From a virus (lineage: Duplodnaviria; Caudoviricetes), in IMG/VR virus record IMGVR_UViG_2854395284_000001, positions 1 through 64,000 of that record: DNA of 64,000 bases; one strand, 5' to 3'. Shown one piece after another: positions 14,101 through 61,781 of this stretch. Position numbers and translations under genes: made by a program. The first letter of the stretch is position 1. Every line of letters starts with the position of its first letter. The notes beneath the pieces were generated by a model. It made no database searches. It worked only from the letters and a program-made list of their open reading frames with translations, and had not been told where the DNA came from.

Positions 14101-15212
14101 AGATATGTGGATTTGAAATCACTTCCTGTTGTCGATTCTTCTATTGTAAAAAGACCATGATACGGAATTCTATCGCTTCCATCTTTCTGATAATAAGCAT
14201 TAAATGTAATAGAAGCAGGAGAGAGTGTTCCATCATATGTTTTGTTTATTACATATGATGATGGTTCTATGGAGTAGATATAGGACAACCCACCATCTTT
14301 AGATTTTGTCCAGGTAAAGTTTTTAACTAATGTTTTTCCATTTATACTAAATGTTAAGACTATATTTCCAGTTAATGTTAATTCAGTGCCAAGTGTAGCA
14401 TTTTTTACGATATTCAAAATTATCGATCCATCATTAGATATTGTACAATTCTCAGTTGACCCAAGAGTCATTCCAGATGGAAGAGTGCCGACTGCTACGT
14501 TACATGGTGTTCTTGTTAAACCTCGATACCCTACAAATGATATCTCTATTAACATATCATTAATGACATGCCCATCATATGTACATGGAATATTTTGTGA
14601 TTCGTTTCCAAGAGATATACTTAAAGCAGGTTCGCCAGGATTTCCTTGACCACCAACTGCACCTGCTTTTGCAAGCGACCAAGAAACTTCTTTCTTAAAT
14701 ACTAATCCATTTACAGAAATTGGTATGGAGAATTTTCCGTAATCTGCTTCAATTTTATTTCCAGCCTCGACAGAAAATGTGATTGTATTATTTTTTTGTA
14801 TTACCGAAATTCCATTTTTACTTTCAACTGTTCCAATAGTGAAATTACTAACTGCATCTGTACCTTTGAATACCACAACAGAAGTATCAAAAGATTGATC
14901 CATTAAAGCAATATTATTTTGATTAGAAACAGAGAATGTTATATTTTCATTTTGAAGAATAACAGTATATGCCGATTCTCCATCGTTACCTTTGATTCTT
15001 GTCCATGTATAATCGTTAGGATTATCGGATTCATGTTTTTCAGTTTTGTTATAAGCAATGCCTATATAAACTGCATTTGTTGGATCGTCCGTCAAGTCAG
15101 TTCCATTTTTATCTTGTGCATACTTCACCCAGATATATTTGGAATCTGCGGATGTTCCATCTTTTCCATGTTGCAAAATCAACATGTCTAATTCGTTGCT
15201 TGATAGTAACAT
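8163..15212 (-). CDS. Large tail fibre / receptor-binding protein (2349 aa) with collagen-like repeats and C-terminal intramolecular chaperone (peptidase S74-like)
   Basis: G-X-Y runs (GDKGDKGAT), coiled-coil segments, repeated GGRNL-initiated carbohydrate-binding-like modules, C-terminal SDRKAK..LQPVQY..GFVAQDV. Confidence 0.85.
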   Translation of the reverse strand: MLLSSNELDMLILQHGKDGTSADSKYIWVKYAQDKNGTDLTDDPTNAVYIGIAYNKTEKHESDNPNDYTWTRIKGNDGESAYTVILQNENITFSVSNQNNIALMDQSFDTSVVVFKGTDAVSNFTIGTVESKNGISVIQKNNTITFSVEAGNKIEADYGKFSIPISVNGLVFKKEVSWSLAKAGAVGGQGNPGEPALSISLGNESQNIPCTYDGHVINDMLIEISFVGYRGLTRTPCNVAVGTLPSGMTLGSTENCTISNDGSIILNIVKNATLGTELTLTGNIVLTFSINGKTLVKNFTWTKSKDGGLSYIYSIEPSSYVINKTYDGTLSPASITFNAYYQKDGSDRIPYHGLFTIEESTTGSDFKSTYLSSKNESSLTYTPTSNNIKSVRCTLSQTDKVSVVLDRQTVIVLSDDKMKDALTTVTTRVNGVSSKVDGIDKKITNKVWQTDITTAVNNYDGTTVKSLRDQVSSQETKIGEITSEVSDVKTTVKNNQASVQKDIASIKQDATGFKQTVASTYETKNDATSKYSSFDQRAGKIETNVKTLQGNVTTLSQTDTEIKAELKTAKGDITTLKSDASGLSTKITNAQGDVNILKADAKTMKSDISDAKGNISELQRTSTNLQSQITNNNTNINILSRDPMNYSQLKEDTADYFGFTYDNTADGKWYTVKTLSRDKFISGYYECMGGESFNIEFEISTSVKGNSTNEGTDSTYKGTAIGLYGFNAQKQSVGINYSARTTATAAATATKISSVVSVPVNSRYFRVFLQTESWGNFSGTLKIRNVIVSRIKAMETRISSAETAIQQNTNDISLRATNVQLDQVKKEINGNFANYSTTTEMNSAINQAANSITLDVSKKYTEKTVYDQGIADAKKDATTKADNALNSAKADATSKANKAESNAKADTANKLKNYSTTTEMNSAIKVKADSITQEVSKTYTKQTDFNSLYIGGRNLARNTSSSYSSEFSGFSGAANICPSVATVLTDGLAAGDEITIHLYYNYSNIVAATGQTAKVWIQGSGNVTGWSSGAFPSSPSIAISGSGTKEFLYTTTVSADQIKNSYWFVNLRHDYVRSGTVRWKMFKVEKGNRHSEWSPAPEDTSAAITKVEQTATGIRADLSNTQGDVSSLQATASGLQKSISNAQGDINTMKSDATTMKTRISNAEGDISTLQQTANGFQVQLSKKADQVDSFNWNLVPNSYKMNNQWGAAGGFVGTTTVVLDPDALCGYHIEVKCTTAGSGPHYPVFGKTSDKVGKTYTWSFWAKCSANKSSVPVGHECGGIKRIDLTTSWQKYFMTWKYIDAAHSSFTFYATFAVGEILYIRDFKIEEGSIATKWAPAESDLKGEKGDKGDKGDTGASGKGVKSTAVTYQASSSGTTIPTGVWSATPPATSADKPYFWTRTIITYTDNTTSTAYNVGSTPEGIVVGGRNLAMNTNKGTTGWSWSMQTGGYSKESVSETGVNTCKLTRDSVKQSGWSVIQFSYIGRTKWEADTNYTVSVDVKASVSTSMDPSFRHGDSSNMLIQSCKAVNNKTVANVWTKLVWVVKSAATLPRGTSQNTYFTGMNSGTGVSYQFKNLKIEKGNMATDWTPAPEDYVSFVDVEYYLSTSATSLSGGSWSTTAPTWVNGKYMWSRTVTTDGAGNRTYSPNQNGVCIAGAQGATGAKGDKGDTGGTGATGKGVKSIVEQYYKSTSATAMSGGSWSTTYPGWENSKYIWTRSVITYTDNTTSTTTAVCVTGSKGDKGATGAKGDKGDKGATGSAALQVKRNFSGTYTSVGQITTCGTNDFNRPPFAGDTFICLDGSSNTGTWLVTSVSGGTVNIKLLAYVNSKGATGSKGDKGEKGEKGEADIKCYPLTGGANQLVWSKLGTLISAGDNSNFIINIYTGNGYNGHAQQNSQAEIVIKDGWQASASTTSAFGVSVTRQNCDDLKVQVRATASNKCDVWVYLPWAYSWGTYTIAGKYTSWETSSTTQTTEPITGTLQDLAYRMNSENAAKTATNFMEFTSGNGLQIGNKTDGSWSGYRTKISASAFEIINQAGITLAYYGDKLIQLGKNTKDSVIELCGGLGKIQSKQYYGYQACEMSSDYVALRSTHQAVLTSSTSTGNCMVSAAENTFGATATTTDSTGKTTKQGDIDISDGVVEFSSIRNGYDCAVGVYAGGWSGGTYRGSFSPSKGYTEKVLLGDNGAGQLWDRLMAKNATQIMSDRKAKYDIKPLGADTESQIATMSLDSEHSNANPVDIHSELFDRLQPVQYKMVNDDQRIRFGFVAQDVVDAMKELGIREDELDLVHHDQRVTENGYNDTYGMVYTNLIALITHELQLEKQRRSNLELEVADLRSELETMRDNLSGNTN

Positions 15213-15234
15213 TGCTCACCTCCTTTTTTATGTG

Positions 15235-18200
15235 TTACATTTTTTCAATTAATGTATCGATATCTTTATCTGTTAACGTATTCGCATTTTCCTTGATTGC
15301 ATCGATAACATTTGTTCCAATCTTTTCATAAGATTTGCTGAGTAATTTATTTAAAATTGCATCTGCTAATAAATCATAATTTATCTGCTTAAGAGATTTT
15401 CCACTATTGACAAATACGCTATCAGAAGAATCAAGTACTTCAGTTGTATTTACATCAATAATATTTTTGCTCGAAGCAGAAGTATCTGATGCTGCTTCAA
15501 TGGAATATAAACTAATTCCATTTTCATCTTGTAATGTATTTGATTGTTCGTCCGTAATTGACACTTGTGCTACGTCTCCAATATCAACTAGACAACGAAT
15601 TCTCTTACGTATAATTGATTTATCAACATTAATTGTCAATGTTTTATTATTTCCAACCGTTTTCCAATCACCTGACTCGTTATTTATAATTTGCCATTTG
15701 TAAAATATCGGTTCCATAGGCGTAGCACCTTTATATACTTGACATGTACATATAGTACTCGTAATTGTTGTATCATCATCAAACACTACTCCTTTTTCAC
15801 TGGTGATAATTACAGAAATAGAAGGCTGTCCATCGACTCCATTTAAACTATCCAAAATATGTACAGTTAATACATCGTATAATTTTTTTGTGGAATCTTC
15901 GACTTTAATAACTAAAGATTTTTTTGTTGATGGTAATGTTGCAATATAAGAAGATGGTATTATGATTGAAGTTTTATCCGTAGATACATATCTTGTATTT
16001 TCTACATTATCTATATACCATTTACCGATTTTAACATCATTTCTATATTTTGCCGTTATAGTTATATTGTTTGGAGATATAACACCATCTATTTTTCGAA
16101 ATATCTGTTCACCATACAAATCTAGTGTACCAATTTTACCCTCTACATTTTCAATCTGATCAGTAATTTGTTGCTTAATTGAAGTGAACTCTGCATCAAC
16201 TCCATGACCATTAACGATGACTTTCGCTGCGTCAACATTTCCATTCTTATCCGCTTCAATAACATTGAAATTCAGTTTATCTTTAGAAAGAGTTCCATCC
16301 GCAACCATATCGTTTTTAATCAATCCATCAGCGATAGCAGATTCTTTAATGCCTTTAGAATCAATTAATACGCCTTTACCTGTCTCATCATACAAAGTAA
16401 ACGTAAAATTATCCTTTGCATCACGACCAATTTGAATACGTACATTATTATTTTTGTCTTTAAATTGCATTGTGTTACCAACGATAGTAAGTCCACCATC
16501 GTCGGAAGCAATATTAAATTTATCGGCAGAAATAGTACTTGCCTTTAGCATTGCTACAGTAATATTTGCCGCAATCAAATCACGAATGACTGCATCGTCA
16601 ACAACAACATTACTAGCAGTAAGATGAATAAGGTGTCCAAGTTCTGCAGATATATTTCCAGCCAATAAACTATCAATCGCAGCAACAACTGCGGATAATT
16701 CCTTAAAATTACCACTACCTGCGACAATTTTATCAGCAGAAATTAATTTTGACTGTAGATATTCGAAATATCCATTCTCACCATATAGATCAGTAACTTT
16801 AATCAACTTGGCATTTAATTCTTGTAATGATATAGAACCACTACCAAGCATACCGGCGAATTCATTATTTATAATGGAAGAAACTTTATTGCTGAATGCA
16901 CCAGAAGATAAAAGCTTTTGGATTAGCCCAGATGTAAGAGTGACGCCTTCATTATTTAGAAAGTTATTAGACGAGCCAGATGCGGAAGATTTACTGCCAC
17001 CAGATGAATTATCAAGAAGATATGGAAGATCGAAAAATCCGTTTTTTGTTCTTGTCATATTGGAGAAAGTTAATTCAATATTGTTATCCATCATTAATGG
17101 ATTGTATGTCATTTCAATCAGACGAAGTTTAACAACATTATTATCTCCTATTGTCAGATATAAATAATCACCGCGATTTATATTTTTTGTATAATCCTTA
17201 TATTCACTTTTTGCCAAAAAGTTATCCAACGAGGTTATATATTGGTATTGCGGATGAGAAGATATATATAAATCATCAGACGCCGTATTGAATAGCTTTA
17301 GTTGTTCATCAATAGCAGAAACCTGATCGTCAGAATCTGTAAGGAACATATTATCATTCGAATATGTGCCATCGTAATAAACTTTAGATAATTCTAAAAG
17401 ATCTTTTTCGGTAAATGATATAGTGTCGGACGGTGATGCAATTTTTTGATTTTTAGCATCAATAATACAATTTGATTTTTCGTCAACCAAATAATTATTG
17501 TTTTGATGTGTCCACGTTTCTTTATTAACCTTTTTTGTTAATTCAAGTCTTTCTTTGCTATAAGTATTTAAAACATCATTTGCTGCATCAATTTCAGATT
17601 GTCTCTGAGCATATGCTTCCTGGCATCCACCTACATAATTAGAATCTAATTGATTTTGAGCGTCCAGATATTTTGCATACATCTTATCATGAATGTCTTT
17701 AGTGTGAGAAGAATCTTCAGAATAGGGTTTATCGTAACCGCCCTTTTTGCAAGTTTCAACTGTGTTTTTATACTCTTGCAGCTTTACTTTTAATTCGTCT
17801 AATCCGTATAACTTCCAATTGGTCTTATAAGAATCTACATAATCTGCATTGTCATCGTCCGTAGGTAATTGACGATTATTCATTTCGATTTGAATAGATG
17901 GAAGAATTACATCTCGAATTTGATAATAATCATTAGCATCCGAAGACTTTTTTAAAGCATCCTCATCAAAGTTGCCATTGCTATCTACATAGAATTGCTC
18001 ATAACCCTTGAGTTGGGCCTGGTAATTTGCTTGCGCTTCTTTTAATTCATCATCTGTAAATGTACTCCAATTTGTAGAGCAATCATCCAAAGGAACACGA
18101 TCATACAATTCTGTGATAACTTTCATCTGTTGATTATATTTTCTAGTCGCTTCAATATAATCAATCCTACAGTTTTCCGCATCTTGTTTCCATAAATTAT

Positions 18201-22632: not shown

Positions 22633-23217
22633 ATATAATAAGAAAACTGTTTTGTTTTCTTGATTTTATTATATGCAATTTTCGGAGAAAAATCTATTCA
22701 CAAAATTCACAAACATGCGAACGGTGGTTCGTATAACTTCCACAAACTTGCATAAACTTCTCTATTGTTCTATTTCGTTGTCTTTTCTTTTACTTACTTC
22801 TCGCATACATGTGTTCGAGAGATTCTTTACTCGTATCTACACTGTGTTCTATCTATTCGTCAGTAGCTATAGGAAAGAACACACCTCAAAATTATAATAT
22901 CACTTAATATTCAAATAGTCTATATTTTTTCGACCGCCAATCGCTTGCAGTCTTCCATTAAGGCATTACGCCACCCAATATGGGTTAGTCTCTGAACGTC
23001 TTCCATATCATTTCTGACTTAGGAAGTTCGCTGCGTCTGAGTGACTTGCACACCCGGTTATCCCTAGTTTAATTATTTTTATGGTTTCTATCCAATAACG
23101 GACTGTGAGTTTAAAACTCTACCGCATTCACGCCTATCGTTTCCGGTTACGTTGTAGCCAATTAAACCTTATGGGGACTCCCCGCAATTAAATAGATTTT
23201 ACAGGAGCAAATATTTC

Positions 23218-26200
23218 ACCCCTTCTAAAGCCATGATCTGTGCTTTAATAGCATTAATATCATTGCTCTTTTTGGATATTGATTTATCATAGGAATAATA
23301 GTCAGCTTTTGCTTGAAGCGCCGACTTTCTCTTGCTGATTATTTTATCAAGATAATCAACCTCTGTACTCATAGCGTTCTTATACAGATCAACCAGACTG
23401 TCCTGATATGATTTCACATCTGCAATCGAACCTTGAATACCTTCACGGTAATCTTTTGACTTGTCATTATATTCCGTTAAGGAAATAACCCCATTGTCAT
23501 AAGACTTTTTCAGTTTTTGCAGACCCGTGGTATAATCTGCAATTTTTTGTTTTGCCGTACCAATACTCTGCTGTAAGAGAGCAACTTGTGCCAATCCATC
23601 TTCCGTGATACGTCCTTGCTTATCAAGGAATGCATCATCGTTCAGAAGGTCGCGGAAACTTTTCAGCTCATCTTCAAGGTCACTGTACTTCTGGATAGCA
23701 TCGTCAAGTGGCTTGAATCGTAGCTCATAGATACTATCTTGAAGAGATTCGTTGTCCGTAATCAGTTCCAGAGTATTCTCTTTTAACGTTTGAATCTTTT
23801 CTGCATAATCTTGATACGATTTAGAATTGACATCAAGAACCGCCTGTTTCTTCCGGTATATTTCCATCTGCTTTAGATTCTGCTGTACCTGAGCGTTATT
23901 ATTATCTATACGATCAGTGTATAGATTCTCTGGCACATCACGATTCTGGGATTGCAGGTAAGAAATATATTTCTCCGTAATATCCGAATTACGTTTGATT
24001 CCGGCAATTACATTCTGGATAGTATCAATTTTAATCTGATCCAATTTATCCCGTAGTTCAATTAGACTGGTAGAAGCATCATAAATCTTAGCTGTGAAGT
24101 CTTGGATATTCTTCATAGCAGACTGGTATGCATCGGAACCTTTCTTTAATAAACCACTGGACAGCTGGGAATTGATTTCCTTCTGATACTCATTGAGTTT
24201 CTGCGTAAGCTGTTTGTAAGTATCTTCCTGTGCTTTGATGGATTTATTGATATTGGCATAATTGTCTGGATTGTCAATCGCCACACCCAGCGCATCGTTG
24301 AGAGAAATTTTGGAATCGGCTACGGTTTTTATCGCATCGTTGATGTCTACGATCGTATCATATTCTTTTTCAATGATTTCCAGACGTTTTTCAGCGAGTT
24401 CGGTAATTTTATCTTCGAGTTTGGCTACGTTATCAGCAGCGGATTCATATTTACTGTAGTAGTCCTTATACTCATCAATCTTTTTCTTCAGATCCTCGTT
24501 GGTTACTTTTTCCACATCAAGTGTGCCATTCTGGATTTTAGAGATATAAGAAGGATCAAGCCCCACGTTCGCCGCAAGCTGTAAATACTTGTTGGCTGAC
24601 TGCTGATTTGCAGTTAATTCCTGCTGAACTTTACTGATAGCGTCATATGCTTTTGTCTGCTTCTGCGCCAGACCGATAGCACGATCAATGTTATCAACTG
24701 CAATCTCAGTAGCACGAGACATTTCCTTAAGAAATACTTCTATCCAGTCGAAGGTTTCCTCGGTTGCTTCTTTGGTGGAAGAGCTGCCGGAACTTCCTCC
24801 GGAAGAGCCACCGGATGAGGATCGAGTTGAACCACCAGAAGATGATCCACTGTTTCTACTACTACTGCTACCAGAAGATGAGTTAGGGCTTGTATTATTC
24901 TGTTTCTTTTTTTCTTCCCATGTGGAAGAATCTGCTTTTGTTCCAGAACTTCCAACATTAAATCTTCCCGATCCGCCAGAGAACGCACTACCTAAAGAAT
25001 AACCATCACCTGCAAGCTGTGCATGAGAGCCGGTAACATAACCATGTTCAAGTAACTGCTCCGTTTGATCACCGTTGAATACAACATCATCTTTCTTCAA
25101 ATTTGCAAAAGTAGGATCGCCGCCATTCAAGATAAACGCCTTACCATCCCGAACGATTGCTTCTGGTTTTAACTCATTTACAAGCGCATGTGGTTCATTG
25201 TGAGCAAGCCCCCAATTACGGCTTGCAGTACCTGACGCATGAGCAGTTCCTATAGCGTGTGCCGTACCATTTACTCTTGGAACAGTACCATTTGTCTTAA
25301 TATTGTAAGTCAGACTTCTTGTTTTATTGCCTGGTAAATTTTCAAGTCCGGAAACAACCACACTGTAAGTAACCGTAGCATTTTTGTCTTTCGGATCATA
25401 ACTGTCAATCGCACTATGGTCAACTTTGTATTTGACAGTAGCGTCCTTATCTTTCGGCGTATAATTTACAATCGCTTCTTCGTTTACACCAGCTTTTACA
25501 AGTAATTCTGGCGTAATTCCAGAAATCTTTGCAGAGACGTTGGCAAGAGCATTCGGATCAAGATTTACCCCTATTCCTACATCAATCGGATGAGTAGCAA
25601 TATTAGAAAGTTTCGACTGAAAATCAGTATCGTCAAGACCTAACTTTGCTGTCGTATCAGCATCAAGATTCTGTAGCTGTCCTGCCAACTGTTGTACTTT
25701 CTGCTGTGCATCTGTGGTATCAATGTCGATGCCCTGTGTTTTCATCGTGTTCTGTGCATTCAGAATCTCTACAGCATTCTGATATTCCTGTAATTTTCCG
25801 ATCGCATTGCCTAGTTCTCCGTCAACCTGCGAAGTATCAACCTGTAGAATAGCTGGTGTATTTTCAAGATTCTGTTTCGTAGCGTACAGGGATTGTAAAC
25901 TGTTGACAGCATCCTGTGTGTCAGCATTAACAGGAATCGTACCGTCTTCGTTTCTGAACTGCTCCAACTGACTCTTCAGATCAGAGATCTTTTGATCGAC
26001 AGAACTTGCATCCGCATCAATTACAATGTTATTTTGTCCAGCTTCATGCTGTTTCTGCACCAGATAGTCAAGAATATTATTGGCTTGTTCTAAACGTTCT
26101 GTCCGAACTTCTGGTTCCAAATCAGCGTCATTGACTTGTTGAATATATTCTTTAACCTTGCCAATGTCATCTGTGATTTCACTGAATGAATCTGTGTCCA

Positions 26201-29087
26201 GATTGATGCTATCAAGAGAAGTTTCACCCATTCCATCAAGAGCTTCTTTGGCTGATTGAGCTTCTGTCTTTAGTTGTTCCAGAGATTTAACCGGCTGATC
26301 GAGGTCTATGTCAAAGCCAAAATCATGCAGTTTTCTTAGTACTGATTGCACAGCTTCCACATCAATTCCCAGTGCATCCGCAATTTCTTGATCGTTTCCG
26401 ACACCAAAATTAATTTGCCAGGAACCATCCTCGTTCATATGTGCCCATTCGGAGTTAAGATTGGATATGTCCTGCAAGAATGCTTGACATCCTTCCTGTC
26501 CTTCTGTGAAGTAACGCTCCATCTTCGGATAGGATTCTTCATAGGCAGCCACGATTTCATCCACACTGGCATTGGTCAGATCCTTATTTGACATCAGATC
26601 AACAAACTCTCGGAATTTGTTTTCTCCCACAAGTCCTTTATCGTAGAGATCTTTGATGGATTCCATGTTACCCTGGATGGAATCATACATATTACCTTCT
26701 TCAACACCGGACATAGCATCCTGCCATTGTTGATAAGCAGAAGTAGCAGTTTGATACTGATATGCTAGATCTTCCAGAGAGGAAATATTATTCAAAATAC
26801 CTTCGCGCTGTGCCTGTAAACCGCTGACATCTTGACCTTTTACCATTGCATCGGCAATCTGCTCCTCGACTTGTCTAAGTGCTTCCTGTTGATCTGCAAG
26901 GCCGGAAAGATAATCCGCTTTGTTCATTTCAGATTGTTGTGCCTGTAATTTTGCAAGCTCTTCACGATTGATATGGTAACCGTCTGCGGTTTTCTCCAAA
27001 GCACGCGCAGCATCATCTCCGAACATTTCTTTAAATGCTTTCACATTATCGGCAGAAATACCTGCTCCCGAAACAGATTCAGACATAATCGTCTTGAGCG
27101 TTTCCAGATTTGCTTGTGCTTGCTGAATGGTAGTATTGACTTCTGAGAAGGAATCATCCACTTGATTCATGGATACGGTTGCCGTCATACCCATATCCGT
27201 TAAGAGATCAACAACTTTTGCCACACTTTCAGCAGAATCATCGGAAACAATTCCGAGATCCATTGCTTCATTGACTGCCATTCGCAAAGCATCTTTGCCA
27301 GCTACAACATCACTTGTATCAAGATTGATACTCTTGAGGTCAATATCTGTGTAATTCTTCAACTCTTTGAGCTTTGAAAGTACGGTATTATTTAACTTAT
27401 CTGCACCTCTGCCGGACAGCCGTTCCTTGAACTCATAAGTCTTTTCGGATGCTGTATCAATACCGTCTGCAATCTCATCGAACAACTCCTTGTATTTCTT
27501 ACCGGAATCCGTACTGACAATATTATCCACGGAATCTTTTACGCCATCTAATGCAGTTTTCGCTGATTCGACCTTAGATGTATCTCCACTTTGCAAAGCT
27601 TCGTTATATTTGTCCACTGCATCCGCATATTGCTGATATACAGTTGCTGGTTTATTGTTACCGTAACCTTCTGCAAGCATGGAATTTTTCAGATACTCTT
27701 GATATACTTCTTGATGCTTATCCAAAATATCCTTATAAGAAGATTCTGCATCTTCCGCGGAACTGATGATATTATCAAAGTAATCAGTATTCTTACCCTC
27801 GTCCTCAAACTGCCGTTTCAGCTCTTTAACAGTAGCGAGGAAGGAATTTAATTTTTCATCTGCTCCTGTAACTGTTTCATTTTCAAAACCGAGTTGGAAC
27901 TGACCTGTGCTTGTACTTGTGTACTGTTTTAGTCCAGCTTTTTTTGCCGCTTTCTGGATTTCTTCGATCTGAGTTTTGCTATTTTGGTAACGCTTCAGCG
28001 CATCTTTATATACGTCTGAATTTGTATATTCAGATTTCTGTGGTTCCGAGCCGAGCATAGCTAAAGTAGGTGTATTACCAAAGAATGACTCATAATCATC
28101 TTTGGTCATTTTCTTTTTAGCTTTTTCGTAATTCTTCTCATTATCCGAATCATTCAGCCAACTTTTCGCATTTTCAACTTTGAGCTGCTGCATCTTCTCG
28201 ATCTGCTCATCGAGTTTGCCATTTACAAGATCAATTCCATCCGCCTGTTCTCCATAAGAGTCTGATAATTGACTTTGGATATCTAGCAATTGACTCTTCG
28301 TGTTGTATGCTTCTTGCTCCGTAAGAGTACCAGAATCAAGAGAATCCCTTAGTTCCTGTGCTTTACTAATATTGTCATCAATAGACTTATTACGTTCCTC
28401 TATCTCTGCTATGGAGTCTTTCGTGTGCTGGATGGATTCCTGGACAGATTGATTGTAGCCTTGCCATGCTGCAACGCCTACGGTAACTGCTGTGGTTAAA
28501 AGGAAAATCGGATTTGTAAATGTAGCAAGAAGACCTTTAAAATAGTTTGATAAACCAGAAAATGCGGATTTTGTGGTTTCTACTTTGGGTGCTAATTCAA
28601 CAATTGAGTCACCTAAATCTTGATTATTATCAATGAGATCTTTAACAAACTCATTATATGCCGCGCTGCCTTTTTCACCTGAATTAGCTATCATATCAGC
28701 AATATCGTTATCTTTATATTTTTTTAAGACTTCAGAATTACTACTCATCAAGGCGTCAACTAAATCGCTTGCATTATTTATATTTAATTCTATAGCCTTA
28801 CTAAATGTAAGATTACCTGCCGCAGCTTTTTGATATAAATCAGCGTCATTCGCAAGAGATAATGCTTGTTTTGTCAACGCATCGTTTAAGCCCATGACAG
28901 ATGCTTTAGTTTTAATTTGCTCTGTGGAAAATTCACTAATTCCATTTTTCCCAACTTTAAAAGACTCGTTAAAAGACTGTTGTAGTGTACTGCTTAATGT
29001 GTCAAATGTTGAGTTTTTTCCATATTTATTTCTCAGTAAGTTTAATTCTCCAAAACTACCAAATAAATCACCTAAATTTTTTAACTG
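23218..29087 (-). CDS. Tape measure protein exon 4
   Basis: Long helical ORF with no RBS before its nominal TTG; joins exon 3 in frame (ATA GGT|CAG TTA). Confidence 0.85.
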
Positions 29088-29107
29088 CAAATAAAATTAT
29101 TGTATAA

Positions 29108-29138
29108 TGTTGGATTTATATAATAATTATGATATAAT
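29108..29138 (+). promoter_or_regulatory. Sigma-A-type promoter for intron cargo (TTGGAT-17-TATAAT, extended -10); near-duplicate at 29961-29991
   Basis: tgttggatttatataataattatgatataat versus tgttggatttatataacaattgtggtataat. Confidence 0.7.
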
Positions 29139-29173
29139 GTAATCAATTTGATATATAAGGAGGTATTATCTCT

Positions 29174-29737
29174 ATGGATTTTCAGAATTTAATAATTTGT
29201 CCAGATTGTAATGAGAATGTAAGTATCCACGCAGAAATATGTCCTCATTGTGGACGACCAATAAAAAAATATCTTGAAGAAAATAATATTAATGATTTTA
29301 CTAAAGGTTTTATCTGTCCGAGATGTGGTGACAAAGAAGCTTTGTATTTTACTCCATACAGAAGAGTAAGTTGTGAATATTGTCATATCCCATTTATTCA
29401 AACAAAATATGAGATTGTTGATTTCTTTAATCACCATGGAGAAAGCAAAGAAGATATTCTTCACGATTTAAAAGAACTTGGAGTAGACGATCAATTTGAT
29501 GAAAATGAATATAATAAACGATGTCTAAAAGAAGAAGAATACAGAAAAAATTTAAGGAAACAAGCAAGTCATGAACTTCAACAATCCACTAATCAACACC
29601 ACTGTCCAGTATGCCAATCCACAAATATCGAGAAGATTGGCATGTTTAAGCGTATGCTTTCTACCAGCATGTTTGGAATTGCATCTGATAAAATTGGAAA
29701 ACAGTTTACGTGTAAAAATTGCGGATATAAATTTTAG
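29174..29737 (+). CDS. Multi-zinc-ribbon protein (intron cargo), paralogue of 32188-32775
   Basis: Six CxxC pairs; AAGGAGG RBS; C-terminal CPxC-ST.I.KI...KQF.CKNCGYK. Confidence 0.85.
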   Translation: MDFQNLIICPDCNENVSIHAEICPHCGRPIKKYLEENNINDFTKGFICPRCGDKEALYFTPYRRVSCEYCHIPFIQTKYEIVDFFNHHGESKEDILHDLKELGVDDQFDENEYNKRCLKEEEYRKNLRKQASHELQQSTNQHHCPVCQSTNIEKIGMFKRMLSTSMFGIASDKIGKQFTCKNCGYKF

Positions 29738-29739
29738 AA

Positions 29740-29940
29740 TCATTCCTCATTTACTTTTACCTGTTTCACAAGACATTTCATTTTCTCCTGTAACACACGC
29801 TGCTCTTCAGTAAGAGTAGATGGATCAGTATATATGGAAGGATAATCAGTCTGCGGAAATGGATAATCTATGATTGAATTTGCCATAACATATTTGTGGA
29901 ATTTTTCAAACCCATAATCAATTAAAATACTATCGTACAT
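29740..29940 (-). CDS. Small hypothetical protein (intron cargo)
   Basis: GAGGTG RBS before MYDSIL. Confidence 0.45.
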   Translation of the reverse strand: MYDSILIDYGFEKFHKYVMANSIIDYPFPQTDYPSIYTDPSTLTEEQRVLQEKMKCLVKQVKVNEE

Positions 29941-30032
29941 TTTATATTCACCTCTAGAAATGTTGGATTTATATAACAATTGTGGTATAATTTAAAATTA
30001 TCAAATATATAAATAAGCGGATGGGAAAATAC

Positions 30033-31121
30033 ATGAAAAGAAAACACACAATACGGATAACAGGTCTTTTATGCTTTTCTTTTTTTATTACAAGTTGTGG
30101 ACAATCATCTGCAACATCAGCTTCTAGTGTAATCAAAGAGGCAGTTAATACTGATAGCATCGAACAGATTATTTCAGAAGATAATGAAACGACTGACACA
30201 GCTATAGACGTTTCAGATCAATCAAGCAATTTAACAACAGATAAAGTGTCAAATGTAACATGCTCATGGGAAGATAGTGAAGTACCAATAGAAGTTGGAA
30301 ATGATAATTCAAAAGCACTAATTAAAGATACAAGAATTGTTAATTCTTCATATGGCACATTACTGATTATGGATTTTACATATACCAACAATACTGCGCA
30401 AGCATCAGATTTTATTAATGATAGCAATTGTGATGTAAAACCATATCAAAATGGTATAGAATTAGATAGACCAGGGATAACATCCGAAGCGGGTATTTAT
30501 GATTATAGTGATGCATTTACAAATGTAAAAGATGGAGGAATAATAAATACGCAACTTGTATGGGTTCTTAAAGATACGATGAACCCAGTTGAAATTGATT
30601 TTGGAATAGATTCAAATTACGATCCTGCATATTCAAAGACATTAACTTTAACTGGCGGCAAAGACATTGAAGATAAACAAGATAAATCGCAAGAAACAAA
30701 AGAATCCGATTATAATATATCGTGGCTGAATGACAATGTACCAGAAAAAATTGGAAATGATAATTCGTATGCAATATTAAAAAATACATCTGTTTTGAAA
30801 TCCCCGTCATATGGAATCGTATTAGTAATGGATTTTGAATACACAAATAATCTGGATAAAGCTAGAAATTTTATCAATAACACACCATGCCTTGTAAAGA
30901 TTTATCAGAATGGTGTTGAATTAGATAGTCCTGGAAATACATCGGAACAAGGAATATTCGATTATTCTAATGCGTTTACTGGTGTAAAAAATGGTGGAAC
31001 ATTAAAAACACAGTTGGTTTGGGTTTTACCAGATGATAAAAGTCCCGTAGAAGTCGAATTTGGTTTGGATAATAATTATAAACCACAATATGATTGTACA
31101 TTAAACATTTCTGAAAAATAA
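30033..31121 (+). CDS. Lipoprotein with two tandem DUF5067-like Ig-fold domains (intron cargo)
   Basis: Signal peptide with lipobox-like ITSC; duplicated 'MDF.YTNN...YQNG.ELD.PG.TSE..VK.GG...TQLVWVL'. Confidence 0.8.
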   Translation: MKRKHTIRITGLLCFSFFITSCGQSSATSASSVIKEAVNTDSIEQIISEDNETTDTAIDVSDQSSNLTTDKVSNVTCSWEDSEVPIEVGNDNSKALIKDTRIVNSSYGTLLIMDFTYTNNTAQASDFINDSNCDVKPYQNGIELDRPGITSEAGIYDYSDAFTNVKDGGIINTQLVWVLKDTMNPVEIDFGIDSNYDPAYSKTLTLTGGKDIEDKQDKSQETKESDYNISWLNDNVPEKIGNDNSYAILKNTSVLKSPSYGIVLVMDFEYTNNLDKARNFINNTPCLVKIYQNGVELDSPGNTSEQGIFDYSNAFTGVKNGGTLKTQLVWVLPDDKSPVEVEFGLDNNYKPQYDCTLNISEK

Positions 31122-31164
31122 ATTGGTTCACAATATTTAGTATAATGTGGGGAGGGAAAACTAC

Positions 31165-31782
31165 ATGGCATTAATCAAATGTCCAAAATGTGGTCGTGAA
31201 AATGTTTCTAATTCTGCTGAAAGGTGTCCGTCATGCGGATACAATATTAAGGAATACTATGACAAGTCGCATGAAAAAGACAATGAAAATAAAAGAATTG
31301 TATTAGGTATAGGTATAGTAATATTAGTCTTTGCAGTCCTTTTCCTTAAGAAAGAATCGTTCACTACTCATGACGCTGATCCTTTTAAAAAATATTATTC
31401 GAACTTTGGAAAGGATATTTCGACTGTTAATAAATCTAAAAAATACATAATAAGTTCAACATCTGACCATAAAGGAATGTTGGTAAACAATTCTGTTAAA
31501 ATATGGAATATAGATGGAAAGTTATTATTGATAGCTAACGACCAAGATGATGATGAACTAGGACTTTTAATATGGAGTGCGGAAAATGTTGAATTAGATA
31601 ATACTCAATTAGATCATATAGTTGAAAAAATGGATAAATTATATGGTAAAAACACTTATCATTACGATATTGAAAATGATTTAAAAGTATATGATTGGGA
31701 TGAACTATCCAATATGAAAATTGAATTGTTTTATCGTCCCTGTATTAAAACGATGATGATAAGTTTTTCAACAAATGAATGA
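31165..31782 (+). CDS. Zinc-ribbon, single-TM membrane protein (intron cargo)
   Basis: MALIKCPKCG..CPSCG followed by a hydrophobic helix. Confidence 0.8.
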   Translation: MALIKCPKCGRENVSNSAERCPSCGYNIKEYYDKSHEKDNENKRIVLGIGIVILVFAVLFLKKESFTTHDADPFKKYYSNFGKDISTVNKSKKYIISSTSDHKGMLVNNSVKIWNIDGKLLLIANDQDDDELGLLIWSAENVELDNTQLDHIVEKMDKLYGKNTYHYDIENDLKVYDWDELSNMKIELFYRPCIKTMMISFSTNE

Positions 31783-31799
31783 TAAGGAGATTTAACGTT

Positions 31800-32135
31800 A
31801 TGAAATGTACAGAATGTGGCAAGGAATTAACAGCAGAAGAGCAGAGCCAAGGAACTTGTTCATCTTGCGGGAAAAAGATTGAAACTCCGGCAACATCCAA
31901 TACATCGGAAGAAATTTATACAACGCTTGTTGGACAATCATTGAAGATTGTGGGAATAATTGTTCTAGTAGGTGGTTTTATTGGATCTTTCTTAATAGGA
32001 AAAGATGATTATGGTTATCTTTCTTATTCTAGCTTTTTCTTTTATCTTTTTGTATCTGTTATCGGTGGTTTGCTGATTACAGGTATGGGCGAAATTGTTA
32101 ATTTTCTATATACCATTTGCAAAAAGCTAAAGTGA
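31800..32135 (+). CDS. Zinc-ribbon, two-TM membrane protein (intron cargo)
   Basis: CTECG..CSSCG, two hydrophobic segments, AAGGAG RBS. Confidence 0.8.
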   Translation: MKCTECGKELTAEEQSQGTCSSCGKKIETPATSNTSEEIYTTLVGQSLKIVGIIVLVGGFIGSFLIGKDDYGYLSYSSFFFYLFVSVIGGLLITGMGEIVNFLYTICKKLK

Positions 32136-32187
32136 TGTCGTATAGACTTCAACTCAACTAGGAAATATTTACGGAGGTAATATCTAT

Positions 32188-32775
32188 ATGAGTAAAGTTT
32201 TTTGCCCTGAATGTGGAAAAATTTTAAGTCAATATGCAGAAACTTGTCCTGATTGTAGTTTCCCAATAGCCAAATACGTAAAAGACGCCAATCTTACAGA
32301 CTTTTCAAAAACATTTGTATGCCCTAAATGCGGTTATTGGAGCGACATGAATAGCATTGCTGGCGAAATTATGTGTGAATACTGCCATCTTCCTATGTTT
32401 CAAACAGATGAAGATGGAGATGTAACTCTAAAAGCAACGTTAAATATGAAATCAAATGAAGAAAAAGATTCTTATATTTATTCTCTTTTAGAACGTTGCG
32501 GTAAAACAGATGAATATAGTGAAGAAGCTCATCAAAATTTCCGCCGCAAATTACACGAATGGGCAGAAGAGGAGCGTAAAAAACCGAGCCAACCAGTAGT
32601 TCAGCAGTCCACTACCACACCATCTGCCAACCAACCTCACTGTCCGACTTGCGGTTCTACCGACATCATCAAAATTTCAGCAGCTAAGAAAGCTGTAGGC
32701 GCTGGATTATTCGGATTATTCAGTAAAACCGCTAAGAGTCAGTTTGAATGTAAGAATTGTGGTTATAAGTGGTAA
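32188..32775 (+). CDS. Multi-zinc-ribbon protein (intron cargo)
   Basis: Six CxxC pairs; GGAGG RBS. Confidence 0.85.
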   Translation: MSKVFCPECGKILSQYAETCPDCSFPIAKYVKDANLTDFSKTFVCPKCGYWSDMNSIAGEIMCEYCHLPMFQTDEDGDVTLKATLNMKSNEEKDSYIYSLLERCGKTDEYSEEAHQNFRRKLHEWAEEERKKPSQPVVQQSTTTPSANQPHCPTCGSTDIIKISAAKKAVGAGLFGLFSKTAKSQFECKNCGYKW

Positions 32776-32799
32776 ACTATTCTATGTGAGGTATAAAAC

Positions 32800-33552
32800 A
32801 TGAGTATATTTGAAAAAGACGATTCAATGAATCGATCCGTTAATTTATGCCTAAGTATGTGTGAACAGCTATATAAAATAAAATCTCATAATTTAACCAT
32901 TCTTTTTTCAGACGATATTATGCATGATCGTTTACAATATCAAAATGAAAAAGTTGAATTATCCGAAGAACCAGAGGGATTATATGTTCCTGGCGAAAAT
33001 GGTGCTATTTTTATAAACTATCCTAATTATATAAAAAATCCACCTGCAACGTTAATTACAATAGTGCATGAGCTTATCCATTATTTTGATTCAATGCTAT
33101 TCGTAAATGACTTTTGCGATGGAAACTGGGATAATTTTGAAAATCATGAAATATATAAAACATTCCGTTTGTGGAGTGAATTTCACGCAGTATACCGTTC
33201 TTTATTACTTGGAAGAGAGATATATGCTTATGCAATGCCAGAATATTACTCCAGAGAAGATATTATAGAAGAATTTCAGGACTTTACTAAAATTAATAAT
33301 TATAAAAATTACATAGAATCATTTGACGTAGTTGATTATTATCATATTTTTCGATATTGTGCGGAAGTTATGTTGTGTATAGGAATGAATAATCAAATCA
33401 CATTAGATTATTGTATTACAAATAAATTAGTAAAGGATTTTCCCGCTTTTAAAGAATTATTTTATGATTTGTCAAAGATGACTACGTATGAAAAAGCCAA
33501 GGAACACTTAGACCTGATGCATTGGGAATTGTTCAAACATTTTGAATATTAA
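32800..33552 (+). CDS. Putative HEXXH zinc metallopeptidase (intron cargo)
   Basis: EGLYV..IFIN..TIVHELIHYFD..WSEFHA zincin-like pattern. Confidence 0.7.
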   Translation: MSIFEKDDSMNRSVNLCLSMCEQLYKIKSHNLTILFSDDIMHDRLQYQNEKVELSEEPEGLYVPGENGAIFINYPNYIKNPPATLITIVHELIHYFDSMLFVNDFCDGNWDNFENHEIYKTFRLWSEFHAVYRSLLLGREIYAYAMPEYYSREDIIEEFQDFTKINNYKNYIESFDVVDYYHIFRYCAEVMLCIGMNNQITLDYCITNKLVKDFPAFKELFYDLSKMTTYEKAKEHLDLMHWELFKHFEY

Positions 33553-34790
33553 TTCGATATTAACTTTATCTGATCCCGCAGAAAGTGGTGGTAATTGTTT
33601 GCCATCTTTATCAAGGATTACTTCATAATTCTTTTCGTAATCAACATAAGTGATCGGAGTTGTATGCTTTGAAATTTCTCCGCTATCATATGGTTTACAA
33701 TTTTTTCGATAATATTCCGATGGATCTGTAATTTTTATACTAAAGGAATCCGCTTCTTGTGTTATGTTTTTTATATTGATAATAATCACCTACTTTCATT
33801 TGAACTATTTAAAAAAAGAGGATAAAAGATATGTCATGGAAAATTAGAGTCAGAAGAAGTATGCAGCCATGGCCCTGGTGGGCTATAGCGTTGTTATTCT
33901 TTGTGACATTTTTGTTGAAAATGTTATAGAAGTGGAAGAGGAGAGTATTGGAAAGTTATATTTCCATACTCTCCTCAATTCAATGTTTACTGGCACATTT
34001 CAGCCCACGCACATCCTATAGATGTACTATATTTCGATATGGATATTTTGTATGACTTCCATTTGTCAATCATCTATTTTTACCGTTTTTAGTTTTTCTG
34101 TTCTCAAAACGATTAATAGCATCTATGCTAGATTTTACATTACGAGAGAAAAAATCATTTGCTTTTTAGGATCTAAGATAAATGCTTGATCAGAAGATTC
34201 ATCTTTTACGTCTTTATTTCCAATTATAGTTACACTTGCATCAATAATACCATCAGGATCAGATTTTAATGTTTTAAAAATTAATTCAGATTTAGATTCC
34301 AGGCTTTCACATCCTCCATTGATATTGTAATTTTACGATAAATACCTATATAATTTTCCTATTATTTTCCAACAACGCCAGAAATAGGATAGAAGCTGGC
34401 GTGTGATGAGAAAGCATCACAACTTTCGCGTACCGTGGAACATGCATTCAACGCATATAAACTATGGCATTATATACGCTGGAGGAAGGGTGTTCTCTCT
34501 ACTCCTCCTAACTTTCATATGCTTCGCTCGTCATTATGATATTATCTTTAATTCCATAATTGCTGCTAACATTTCACATATTACTATACGTAGTCAGGTT
34601 GGCTCGTGCGTTCTCGCGGAATTTTCATCCATTTCACTGCATTATTGCAGAATAGCGAATTCGACGAATTAATCCTCTATTTATTTTTTACAAGCACTAA
34701 TCTCCCTACGTTGAAATATCATTCCATTGCTATGATATTCTCCGCATTGATAAGCCAGTTTACGATAAACTATAGCCAGGATTTTGGCTA

Positions 34791-34988
34791 ACCTATGCTT
34801 GATATAAATTTGAAACCACCAAGTGCTGTTAAAGCTGTGCCAAGTGGCCCAAGTGTTTCAGTAATTTTAGTAAGAATTTCTAAGAATTGTGTTCCGCTAT
34901 CTATGACAGCCTTGAAAGTGTCTGATGATAGAACAGAAGTTGAAAATTCTTGGAATGTAGCCTTGAATTTTTCAAGACTGTAATCGAT
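34791..34988 (-). CDS. Tape measure protein exon 3 (66 codons; absent from ORF track)
   Basis: Open frame IDYSLEKFKATFQEFSTSVLSSDTFKAVIDSGTQFLEIL...GGFKFISSIG; in frame with both neighbours. Confidence 0.85.
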
Positions 34989-35531
34989 CGTTATATTAAC
35001 AATAGTCGCTAATTATTGTTTTGTTGTATATTATATATAGAAATAACATACAACAAACTCATACCTTCGCATGAGAGTAGACTATTTCTTAACCACACTC
35101 TAAATAGAAGAGCAGCAGTCACACCTTTTCGATTTAAAGGGATCTCACCTACGTTTATAGCGATTACGCCCTACGAGTATTGAATTAGATATTCGAGATT
35201 TCCACTCTTATTTTTAATATTCTCTACATAAATAAGAATATTTTCTAATTCCCGATATGGCTCTAGTCGTTGAAGATTTTCCCTCGACTTAACTAACATT
35301 TGATCAATGTATAACGTTAGGGAACTTTCCTGCATGAACAGCAATTCCTGATTTATATAAAATCAGTAAACTCGATACTTAGGCTTTTGACCATATATCA
35401 TCCTTACGTTGTTTCTACTTTCGTCCCATCATAATATGATTTCTCCATTATTGTGGTGTAAGGCTTTACGCGTTACCTGCAATTAAATGTGTTCTTTATG
35501 CACATTTCTGTACATACGGGTATACGAATTT
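34989..35531 (-). ncRNA. Group I intron 2 of tape measure gene (543 nt, no ORF)
   Basis: GGT|...G|ATC junction restores frame; P7 CAACGACUAG/AAUAGUCU; long sequence blocks shared with intron 1. Confidence 0.85.
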
Positions 35532-35682
35532 ACCCTTTTGGTAATTAGTTAATTCCTTTTCGGCGGAATCTTCGGAATCGTTCATCGCAGTATTAAGCGC
35601 TTGACGAGCAATGTCAAACTGGGACATAAGTGCGCTCATTACCGCTCCTTGATTTTTTCCTGCGATCAACTCAGTTACACTT
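35532..35682 (-). CDS. Tape measure protein exon 2 (151 nt; absent from ORF track)
   Basis: SVTELIAGKNQGAVMSALMSQFDIARQALNTAMNDSEDSAEKELTNYQKG continues the tape-measure domain. Confidence 0.85.
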
Positions 35683-36121
35683 CATATTTTTTTGTTAATA
35701 TAGCCCTCGCTTGAGACTATACCAATTATTATTGAGTCAGATAATAATTCTTATACTCGCATATAAGATCAGAGTACTTTTTAACCACATTATTCATCTT
35801 AAGAATAATAGCAGTCACACCATTTCAGACTTCATTTAGCGATTAAGCCCTACATTAAGGATTTCTCCCCCCTGACGTTGGGGTACTCGTTTGACACATC
35901 CCTATTCGGGACTTTGCGACCAAGCTACCATTTCTAATTTAAAATAATTAGCAAAATTTCTACTTAGGCTTTTGACCATATAGAATCTCTATCGTTGTTT
36001 TACTTTCGTTACATTCATATCAGCATGTTTCATCCATATTGTAGTGATAGAGCATTAGGTTTTACTGGTTTTAGATGTGTTCTCTTATGCACATTTCTGT
36101 ACATACAGGCAAGTGTAGTCT
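35683..36121 (-). ncRNA. Group I intron 1 of tape measure gene (439 nt, no ORF)
   Basis: IGS UACACUU-G-CCUG pairs exon 2 AAGUGUA and exon 1 CAGGC; P7 GAGUAC/GUACUC; terminal G. Confidence 0.85.
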
Positions 36122-61479: not shown

Positions 61480-61562
61480 TACCGGCAGCGAGACTCGAAC
61501 TCGCACTGCTCATAACAATCTGGGCTTAAACCAGATGTGTCTACCAATTCCACCATACCGGC
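61480..61562 (-). tRNA. tRNA-Leu(TAA)
   Basis: Cloverleaf with long variable arm, anticodon loop TTTAAGC, GTTCGAG T-loop; no encoded CCA. Confidence 0.85.
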
Positions 61563-61597
61563 ATACGGAGGCACTGCCTCCATTCGCTAATTATATA

Positions 61598-61687
61598 CGG
61601 AGCCTGTAGGATTCGAACCCACGCGCCGTTGTTAGCGGCCTGTCAGTTTTCAGGACTGATCTCTTCATCCAACTTGAGTAAAGCTCC
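61598..61687 (-). tRNA. tRNA-Ser(TGA)
   Basis: Long variable arm, G discriminator, anticodon loop CCTGAAA. Confidence 0.85.
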
Positions 61688-61697
61688 AAAATAAAAA

Positions 61698-61781
61698 TGA
61701 GCAGAGTAGGAGTCGAACCTACGGTGTTTCTAATGTGACGGATTTACAGTCCGTTGCTATCGCCACTAAGCACATCTGCCC
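61698..61781 (-). tRNA. tRNA-Tyr(GTA)
   Basis: Anticodon loop CTGTAAA, GTTCGAC T-loop. Confidence 0.9.

Follow-up and report, generated by a model that had tools for sequence, protein, structure and literature searches.

The window analysed here, a 64,000-nucleotide stretch of the IMG/VR viral record IMGVR_UViG_2854395284_000001 (Duplodnaviria; Caudoviricetes), carries on its minus strand a tape-measure protein (TMP) gene whose coding sequence is interrupted by 5.7 kb of DNA that holds a cassette of genes on the opposite strand. We conclude that this insert (29088-34790, minus strand) is very probably one group I intron, which would splice as a first-pass annotation of the same sequence had proposed, with a 3' splice site lying far from the catalytic core. 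The group I reading is supported because helices P1, P10, P7, P3, P5, P8, P9 and P9.1 covary among lineages, because the U that ends the upstream exon and the G that ends the insert are invariant, and because the downstream exon (exon 4) lacks a Shine-Dalgarno sequence; the break itself, which is shared by eight lineages and has contiguous homologues, points the same way.

The reading frames place the interruption exactly where it had been annotated. Exon 3 (34791-34988, minus strand, 66 codons, assigned by frame and translation) ends in ATA GGT, its last U being the 5' splice-site nucleotide, and is followed directly by a TAG codon at 34790-34788, so that the TMP frame stops between GGT and TAG (34791/34790); coding picks up in frame between G and CAG (29088/29087). 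Exon 4 (23199-29087, minus strand, 1962 codons) opens with CAG UUA, within an open frame (23199-29096) that measures 1965 codons from stop to stop and starts three codons ahead of the CAG. The same codon boundary (KNLD/QFK, here SSIG/QLK) is broken in eight lineages, namely the window, L029, L031, L023, L024, L027, L028 and L030, whose TMPs are 30-45% identical; when the DNA of the seven further lineages was compared, the upstream exon was found to end exactly at KNLD (SSIG in the window-type phages). Residues 1-250 of exon 4, used as query in an exhaustive HMMER search, retrieved 103 cluster representatives, mutually at most 50% identical, and by a hand count of the table 34 of these start no more than 11 residues from the start of exon 4, most of them reading M followed by QFK(D/E)LG. 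Two distant homologues, P0085 (locus L025) and P0107, instead cross the site in a single frame (...FFKNLD-SLKDVGNLF... and ...LFKNRD-TLTDIGSVF...), and the C-terminal 1785 amino acids of the L014 TMP, 97% identical to exon 4 residues 179-1962, lie in one open reading frame (ORF) with a TMP N-terminal module. Since eight lineages are broken at one boundary that P0085 and P0107 read through, the break is, as judged by these comparisons, old and fixed at a single codon boundary, with intron-less counterparts.

The ends of the insert are tied to the flanking exons by an internal guide (34750-34760, minus strand), recognised by its pairing and its compensatory changes. Its AACUG forms the P10 strand with CAGUU of exon 4 and its GCUUAU the P1 strand with AUAGGU of exon 3, giving 6 + 5 = 11 contiguous pairs with a U.G wobble at the cut; the 11-nt pairing with the ligated junction described in the first-pass annotation is thus confirmed, and it is conserved and covaries in homologues. 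Across all eight lineages the last base of the 5' exon is U and the last base of the insert is G (the latter also kept in 12 close relatives), and a guide located 18-60 nt inside the insert forms 8-13 contiguous pairs, which take up the final 3-6 nt of the 5' exon, with G.U at the cut, and the opening 2-8 nt of the 3' exon. Random U-ending exon flanks matched the 11 pairs of the window in 124 of 20000 trials and reached the observed score 6-17 times in 20000 for L029, L031, L023 and L027, 75 times for L030 and 597 times for L024. P1 changes in a compensatory manner, with AUAGGU/GCUUAU in the window type versus UAGAU/GUCUA in other lineages, as does P10, where L030 carries two changes (UCGUU/AGCGA versus CAGUUU/AAACUG elsewhere). 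Because the latter co-change makes the 5' end of the insert track an exon several kilobases away, it is, at the level of sequence, the strongest single argument against regarding the two sides of the insert as separate genes. The start of exon 4 agrees with this: no Shine-Dalgarno-like motif occurs within 20 nt upstream of it in any of the eight lineages, as had been noted for the window, although such a motif precedes 21 of the 41 long ORFs of the window (background 4.6%), and a non-start codon, TCG, stands directly before the CAG in the close relative L004.

All catalytic elements map to a conserved 436-nt part of the insert that runs from P1 to P9.1 and opens with the in-frame TAG (34355-34790, minus strand; delimited by conservation and the helix model). 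This ribozyme part is 98-99.5% identical in 11 of 12 close relatives and 93.8% identical in L010; conservation collapses in the cargo beyond, the conserved block of the close relatives stopping exactly at the P9.1 hairpin. Its minimum free energy z-score is -2.3, and no conserved ORF lies within it; an 88-residue ORF antisense to it (34406-34672) was rejected as a gene, being broken in four relatives. The helix model was built by hand from homology with the seven other lineages and then checked sequence by sequence with a script, which took the place of formal pair counting because the MAFFT alignment shifted P8 and P9.1 by one column.

The resulting order is P3, P4-AA-P5...P5'-AA-P4', a P6 arm, P7, P3', P8, J8/7, P7' and P9, with the P3/P7 pseudoknot (all on the minus strand). 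P3 (GAGGA/UCCUC, 34677-34673/34486-34482) is found at the same place and with the same sequence in L031, L023 and L027, and in L024 it is replaced in a compensatory manner by GAAGAU/AUCUUC. P4 (34668-34662/34610-34603, with one bulged C) has the same layout in L031; it is joined through J4/5 (AA) to P5 (34659-34655/34617-34613), which is followed by J5/4 (AA) and encloses a P5a hairpin (34650-34637), and the whole P4-AA-P5...P5'-AA-P4' layout is repeated in L031 around an entirely different P5 (CCGUA/UACGG). For these two helices the first-pass assignment needs revision: its P3' strand was right, but the 5' strands it had chosen, AGGGAG (intron positions 84-89) and GUGC (94-97), are probably wrong, as homology with the seven lineages puts P3 at intron positions 114-118 and P4 at 123-129. 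Ahead of P7 lies a long P6-type arm (34602-34506) taken from the RNAalifold consensus of the window, L010, L005, L013 and L031, which contains 13 compensatory pairs, nine of them in this arm. P7 (G(A)GAACA/UGUUCC, 34497-34491/34442-34437) and the 12-bp P8 hairpin (34481-34449, followed by J8/7, GAAUGCA) are both real as originally drawn and covary in relatives. P7 occurs as GAACA/UGUUC, as GACUA/UAGUC and, with one mismatch, as GAUCA/UGACC, the changes falling on two distal pairs; neither the bulged A nor the G-C pair beside it differs among five lineages. The guanosine-binding site of the Tetrahymena and Twort ribozymes is the P7 G-C pair beside the bulged nucleotide. The P9 hairpin (34420-34403) covaries among lineages like P5 and P8, and the stem of P9.1 (34388-34383/34363-34358) has five different sequences in five lineages, every one of them paired. 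L031 has a diverged copy of the window ribozyme type, and L023, L024 and L027 represent a second type at the same site; the L023-type introns show AAUUGCUGGGAAGCC, CCUAAGUG, UCAGAGACUACA and AUGUAUAGUCC, which, judged by eye against the consensus, we take to be P/Q/R/S-like motifs.

Other classes of element were considered and discarded. A group II intron was ruled out by the lack of a GUGYG start and of an Rfam domain V match, and excision at the DNA level, by a skin-like element or a transposon, by the lack of a recombinase among the conserved parts and of end repeats; a resolvase search of the 91-kb record found none, which says little for a fragment that is an estimated 38% complete. BLAST comparison of the region or the ribozyme with GenBank phages gave no near match, the sole distant match being a chance 52 nt in a Vibrio phage.

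At the opposite end of the insert, the intron 3' tail (29088-29173, 86 nt, minus strand) contains UCCAACA (29114-29108), followed by 19 nt and the terminal G (29088). It is identical in the 12 close relatives save L004, which has a C before the terminal G. The P9.1 loop of five lineages includes a 7-9-nt complement of a sequence located 25-27 nt before the intron end: UGUUGGA (34374-34368) with UCCAACA in the window, UAUUGGC with GCCAAUA in L023 and L027, and longer pairs in L024 and L031; L028 has a different 9-bp pair in the equivalent loop. Comparison of the window and L023 types shows two positions of this pairing altered on both strands. Positionally conserved and with two compensatory changes, the loop-tail dock is a good candidate for the contact that links the two ends.

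Between ribozyme and tail lies the cargo. The six plus-strand genes of the first-pass annotation are present as ORFs (29174-33552, plus strand; ORFs and Pfam). The anchor gene, which adjoins the 3' splice site, encodes a 187-residue triple zinc-ribbon protein (29174-29737); it is followed by a lipoprotein-like gene with two DUF5067 domains and a lipobox-like N-terminus (30021-31121), two genes for zinc-ribbon proteins with a hydrophobic segment (31147-31782 and 31779-32135), a second triple zinc-ribbon gene (32188-32775) that is a paralogue of the anchor gene (36% identical in alignment) and a gene for a HELIH-containing protein (32800-33552), all on the plus strand. The remaining spacer (33553-34354) is variable and has no convincing gene in the window, with sense-strand cargo occupying it in relatives. 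As annotated, no homing endonuclease is recognisable: no Pfam homing-endonuclease family matched the six cargo ORFs or the minus-strand ORFs 33508-33789 and 34135-34332, nor was any LAGLIDADG, GIY-YIG, HNH or His-Cys box family detected by Pfam in the relatives' cargo that was scanned. The six genes also lack matches to Y1_Tnp or OrfB_IS605, and to PADLOC except for a marginal TniQ_IF match of 31779-32135 (E=0.0084, 13.3 bits, no stretch passing alone). A promoter-like element of ~31 bp (TTGGAT, 17 nt, TATAAT) occurs in two plus-strand copies, at 29108-29140 before the anchor gene and at 29961-29993 before the lipoprotein gene. Orthologues of the anchor gene adjoin the 3' tail in all nine lineages examined, always antisense, with 178-196 residues, 30-37% identity and 12 invariant Cys; no nuclease motif was found in the anchor protein by Pfam or a protein atlas, the atlas giving only phage zinc-ribbon clusters.

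The rest of the cargo turns over rapidly. The window cassette is 93-96% identical in seven relatives and absent or replaced in others, and the 12 close relatives with identical intron ends (TMP identity 95-100%) carry inserts of 3534-9052 nt with differing gene sets, in keeping with the earlier expectation of variable cargo at this site in related phages. Pfam families in the cargo of close relatives comprise HTH + Peptidase_M78, SocA/Panacea, a PemK/MazF-like toxin, DUF6864, a trypsin-like peptidase and IS200/IS605 TnpA + TnpB; distant lineages carry DUF3800, ToxN, HTH + HipA, a Spo0A_C-like protein and others. The IS200/IS605 element (TnpA Y1 transposase + TnpB), in sense orientation at 4427-5942 of L008 and present also in L009 and L015, is, from its position, a passenger inside the cargo. 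At the level of gene content, the slot is supported as an accessory-gene hot spot: the cargo bounded by identical intron ends is hypervariable and, in relatives, takes in toxin-antitoxin and abortive-infection-type genes. The earlier view of the ribozyme as a landing pad for accessory genes stands to that extent; expression of the window cargo in the lysogen, and its use in exclusion or defence, is something that we only infer.

The gene that hosts the insert is interrupted more than once. The window forms part of a 91-kb IMG/VR viral contig, estimated to be 38% complete; its close relatives are viral contigs of 130-216 kb, more distant relatives possess SPbeta-type virion genes such as YomU, YomV, YomW and YonB, and one relative resides in a Bariatricus (Lachnospiraceae) metagenome-assembled genome. 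We take the source to be an SPbeta-like gut phage, probably of Lachnospiraceae. Protein clusters containing exon 3 also sit on contigs of 500-574 kb, a size suggestive of integrated prophages. Upstream of exon 3, frame and translation define exon 1 (38952 to about 36103, minus strand) and exon 2 (about 35681 to 35532, minus strand); the exon 2-3 junction is set by relatives that lack intron 2, and exon 3 is 97-100% conserved in relatives (93-94% in L010). Intron 2 (34989-35531, minus strand, about 542 nt) is cleanly missing, in frame, from L004, L006, L007, L008, L012, L013 and L015, and because these seven relatives do without it so precisely it is certainly, on comparative grounds, an intron, although it scores a weak 24 bits against the RF00028 cut-off of 50. 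Its 5' splice-site U seems to lie opposite A, not G, in the best P1 that can be drawn (GGGU/ACCC). Intron 1 (about 35682-36102, minus strand) has long blocks in common with intron 2, and both open near ...GUAUGUACAGAAAUGUGCAUAA. Further insertions in the TMP gene comprise ~1.8 kb at window position 35658 in L006 (4247-6079), L007 (2988-4820) and L012 (837-2669), and 310 bp at window position 36499 in L005 (1676-1987). Taken at sequence level, the TMP gene is a mosaic of optional introns. It is also subject to module shuffling, as read from L014 (7136-15358), where, in an intron-free 2740-residue TMP, an exon 4-type C-terminus is joined at residue 179 to an N-terminal module sharing only ~28% identity with exon 1. 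Relatives that match exon 3 and the ribozyme at 98-99.5% (in L010 only at 93-94%) reach no more than 87-90% in exon 2 and 76-79% in the anchor gene, a contrast compatible with recombination or co-conversion near the 5' end of the intron. L001 (MT835469.1), a 176-kb human-faecal phage, has, between an exon 2-3 homologue and a 2729-codon frame, a comparable 3.5-kb gap (12273-15743) that holds a DUF3800 gene and an antisense 304-residue ORF; its break may be at a slightly different position. Elsewhere in the window, Rfam detects three consecutive tRNA genes (61480-61781, minus strand, 47-55 bits).

Several observations weigh against the intron interpretation. The insert, 5.7 kb here and up to 9 kb in relatives and with convergent transcription, is far longer than the phage group I introns described, and a close relative without it was not found. 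The predicted ligated junction, ...AGCAUAGGU joined to CAGUUAAAA... (downstream side also given as CAGUUAAAAAAU), is absent from viral contigs, and six 18-mer matches in metagenome contigs are attributable to chance. An ATG or TTG precedes exon 4 in most lineages, which would permit leaderless-like or weak initiation. Among the helices, P4 is the weakest, with two mismatches in L031, and the guide pairing of L028 is weak, 2885 of 20000 random-flank trials reaching the observed score. In most lineages, the window included, the loop-tail pairing does not exceed chance in an open search, the window score being reached by 298 of 500 shuffled tails and equally good helices arising in 25-60% of shuffled tails; long-range pairing of the 5' element with the last 90 nt, evaluated with RNAduplex, was likewise not above shuffles, and the tail strand of the dock overlaps the -35-like box of the antisense promoter. 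Finally, Rfam returned no RF00028 match, whether the whole window was searched at the gathering score, 7.7 kb at E<=10 or 601 nt (34230-34830) at E<=10, and also gave nothing for L001 (7.9 kb) and L023 (621 nt). Since the model misses L023, in which P/Q/R/S-like motifs can be made out by eye, and gives the certain intron 2 only 24 bits, we read this negative as low sensitivity for this intron group rather than as evidence against the fold. The first-pass annotation had held that the lack of both a group I covariance match and guide conservation in homologues would speak against its proposal: the match is indeed lacking in the ribozyme region even at E<=10, but the guide is conserved and covaries.

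Part of this evidence would suit a TMP split into two genes, exons 1-3 and exon 4, with the insert as an intergenic hot spot, the 436-nt element as a decayed intron remnant or regulatory RNA, and translation of exon 4 from the TTG or ATG before CAG. Most homologues do have ATG or TTG exactly before codon 1 of exon 4, which is where gene callers start, and the missing intron-less close allele, the missing Rfam match and the great length and mostly antisense content of the insert could all be cited in favour. Two independent genes, however, would have no use for a guide that tracks both exon ends with compensatory changes, including those of a 3' exon kilobases away; exon 4 lacks a ribosome-binding site in all eight lineages and is preceded by TCG in L004, the ribozyme part is conserved (98-99.5% in 11 of 12 relatives, 93.8% in L010) with covarying helices, and P0085, P0107 and L014 are contiguous. 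We consider the split gene improbable. It is harder still to credit that the insertion of an accessory island into an old intron inactivated the TMP, leaving a decaying prophage remnant: the window contig is a 91-kb fragment with an estimated completeness of 38%, as such a remnant might be, but the 1962-codon frame of exon 4 is unbroken in the window and across dozens of lineages, as far out as ~30% identity, the relatives are 130-230-kb viral contigs with full tail modules, and the intron ends are visibly constrained. We regard this account as scarcely tenable.

A different possibility preserves the intron but divides it between two transcripts, one with exons 1-3 and the ribozyme, the other with the tail and exon 4, which would be joined in trans through the loop-tail helix and P10, so that RNA polymerase need not cross the cassette. 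Every catalytic helix lies within the first 436 nt, the 3' part would need just a 7-9-bp dock, P10 and a terminal G, and convergent cargo and, in relatives, sense-strand genes could terminate read-through; the giant group I introns of corallimorph mitochondria also take an unconventional route, back-splicing (PMC6545197). Against this, the sense strand yielded no promoter from which a second transcript could start, promoter-like sites are not enriched (28 found versus 37 expected), and the dock is short and statistically weak by itself. Trans-splicing of group I introns is moreover not known from bacteria or phages, though no search aimed at such cases was made. We hold joining in trans to be very improbable.

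If the insert is one cis-spliced group I intron, the splicing, transcription and cargo function that we infer from its sequence would proceed as follows. The late operon would be transcribed through the entire element, with ribosomes halting at the TAG that opens the intron. The guide would hold exon 3 through P1, with U.G at the cut, and exon 4 through P10, and the 7-bp pairing of the P9.1 loop with the tail would probably draw the distant 3' splice site to the core. Ligation of ...AUAGGU to CAGUUA... by two transesterifications would follow, and the single TMP that results would have about 3000 residues or more. Such splicing would render the insert harmless, and the slot after P9.1 could thereby become a hot spot for the exchange of accessory genes; the cargo, mostly antisense and under promoters of its own, would presumably be expressed from the prophage, many of the genes in relatives being of toxin-antitoxin or abortive-infection types. 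A more speculative extension, which we think rather unlikely, is that the intron has evolved into a cargo bay in which the P9.1 dock, the tail sequence 24 nt before the 3' splice site and the overlapping anchor promoter form an RNA-level interlock between accessory expression and virion assembly. In the lysogen, antisense transcription starting at the anchor promoter would occlude both the dock and the 3' splice site, and the TMP mRNA would be completed only once cargo transcription drops after induction; in a variant of this scheme, the two halves would be joined in trans.

In the textbook view, the group I introns of phage genes are selfish elements with either no cargo or a single homing endonuclease, and those of T4 td, nrdB and sunY, SPbeta bnrdE/F and Twort orf142 contain homing endonuclease genes. 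The present element resembles the latter as a self-splicing-type intron in an essential phage gene with its ORFs outside the catalytic core, and differs in having no detected endonuclease family and many genes instead of one, on the opposite strand. With the hot spots of P2/P4 prophages, which reportedly combine conserved flanks with hypervariable content, it shares that organization and, in relatives, toxin-antitoxin and abortive-infection-type genes; unlike them, it sits within a structural gene's coding sequence and would be harmless only through RNA splicing.

Closer parallels exist in the TMP genes of Bacillus cereus-group prophages, which hold the group I introns TMP-IVS1, IVS2 and IVS3 (Tourasse and Kolsto 2008, PMC2504315). 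These too are in frame, often open with a stop codon, have P1/P10 fitted to the site, occur several per TMP and mostly lack a working homing endonuclease, but the only ORFs reported in them are homing endonuclease genes or remnants (PMC2504315), in contrast to the 2.5-9 kb of unrelated, mostly antisense genes and the conserved zinc-ribbon gene at the 3' end found here. IStrons (CdISt1, BcISt1, CbISt), in which a group I ribozyme is fused to an IS200/IS605 or IS607 element, are similar in their 5' ribozyme, downstream protein genes and 3' splice site far from the core, and some have a predicted pairing of a post-ribozyme motif with the 3' end (PMC4227781). They use T-rich or GG targets scattered over the genome, whereas the window insert has no transposase, carries heterogeneous antisense cargo and occupies one conserved codon boundary. 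That a group I intron can tolerate many kilobases of functional genes in a peripheral element is illustrated by the mitochondrial ND5-717 intron of hexacorals and corallimorphs, which reaches 18-19 kb with genes inside P8 (PMC6545197). That intron, however, is organellar and holds as cargo the core set of mitochondrial genes, which back-splicing removes (PMC6545197); here the cargo is accessory, follows P9.1 and turns over fast.

Within the literature searched, we found no paper on a phage intron as a multi-gene accessory island. If the proposed splicing is true, the insert would represent an accessory or defence hot spot of a new kind, which standard annotation presents as a broken TMP plus hypothetical genes, and would extend the known size of bacterial or phage group I introns several-fold. 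It would offer a tractable system for studying how a ribozyme locates a 3' splice site at a distance of 5-9 kb, and would mean that an entire group of phage introns escapes the Rfam group I model. Left unjoined, the exons would give too short a TMP in these phages, and hence too short a predicted tail. Across a wide family of large gut phages, a single conserved intron site within an essential structural gene appears to be used as a store of exchangeable genes.

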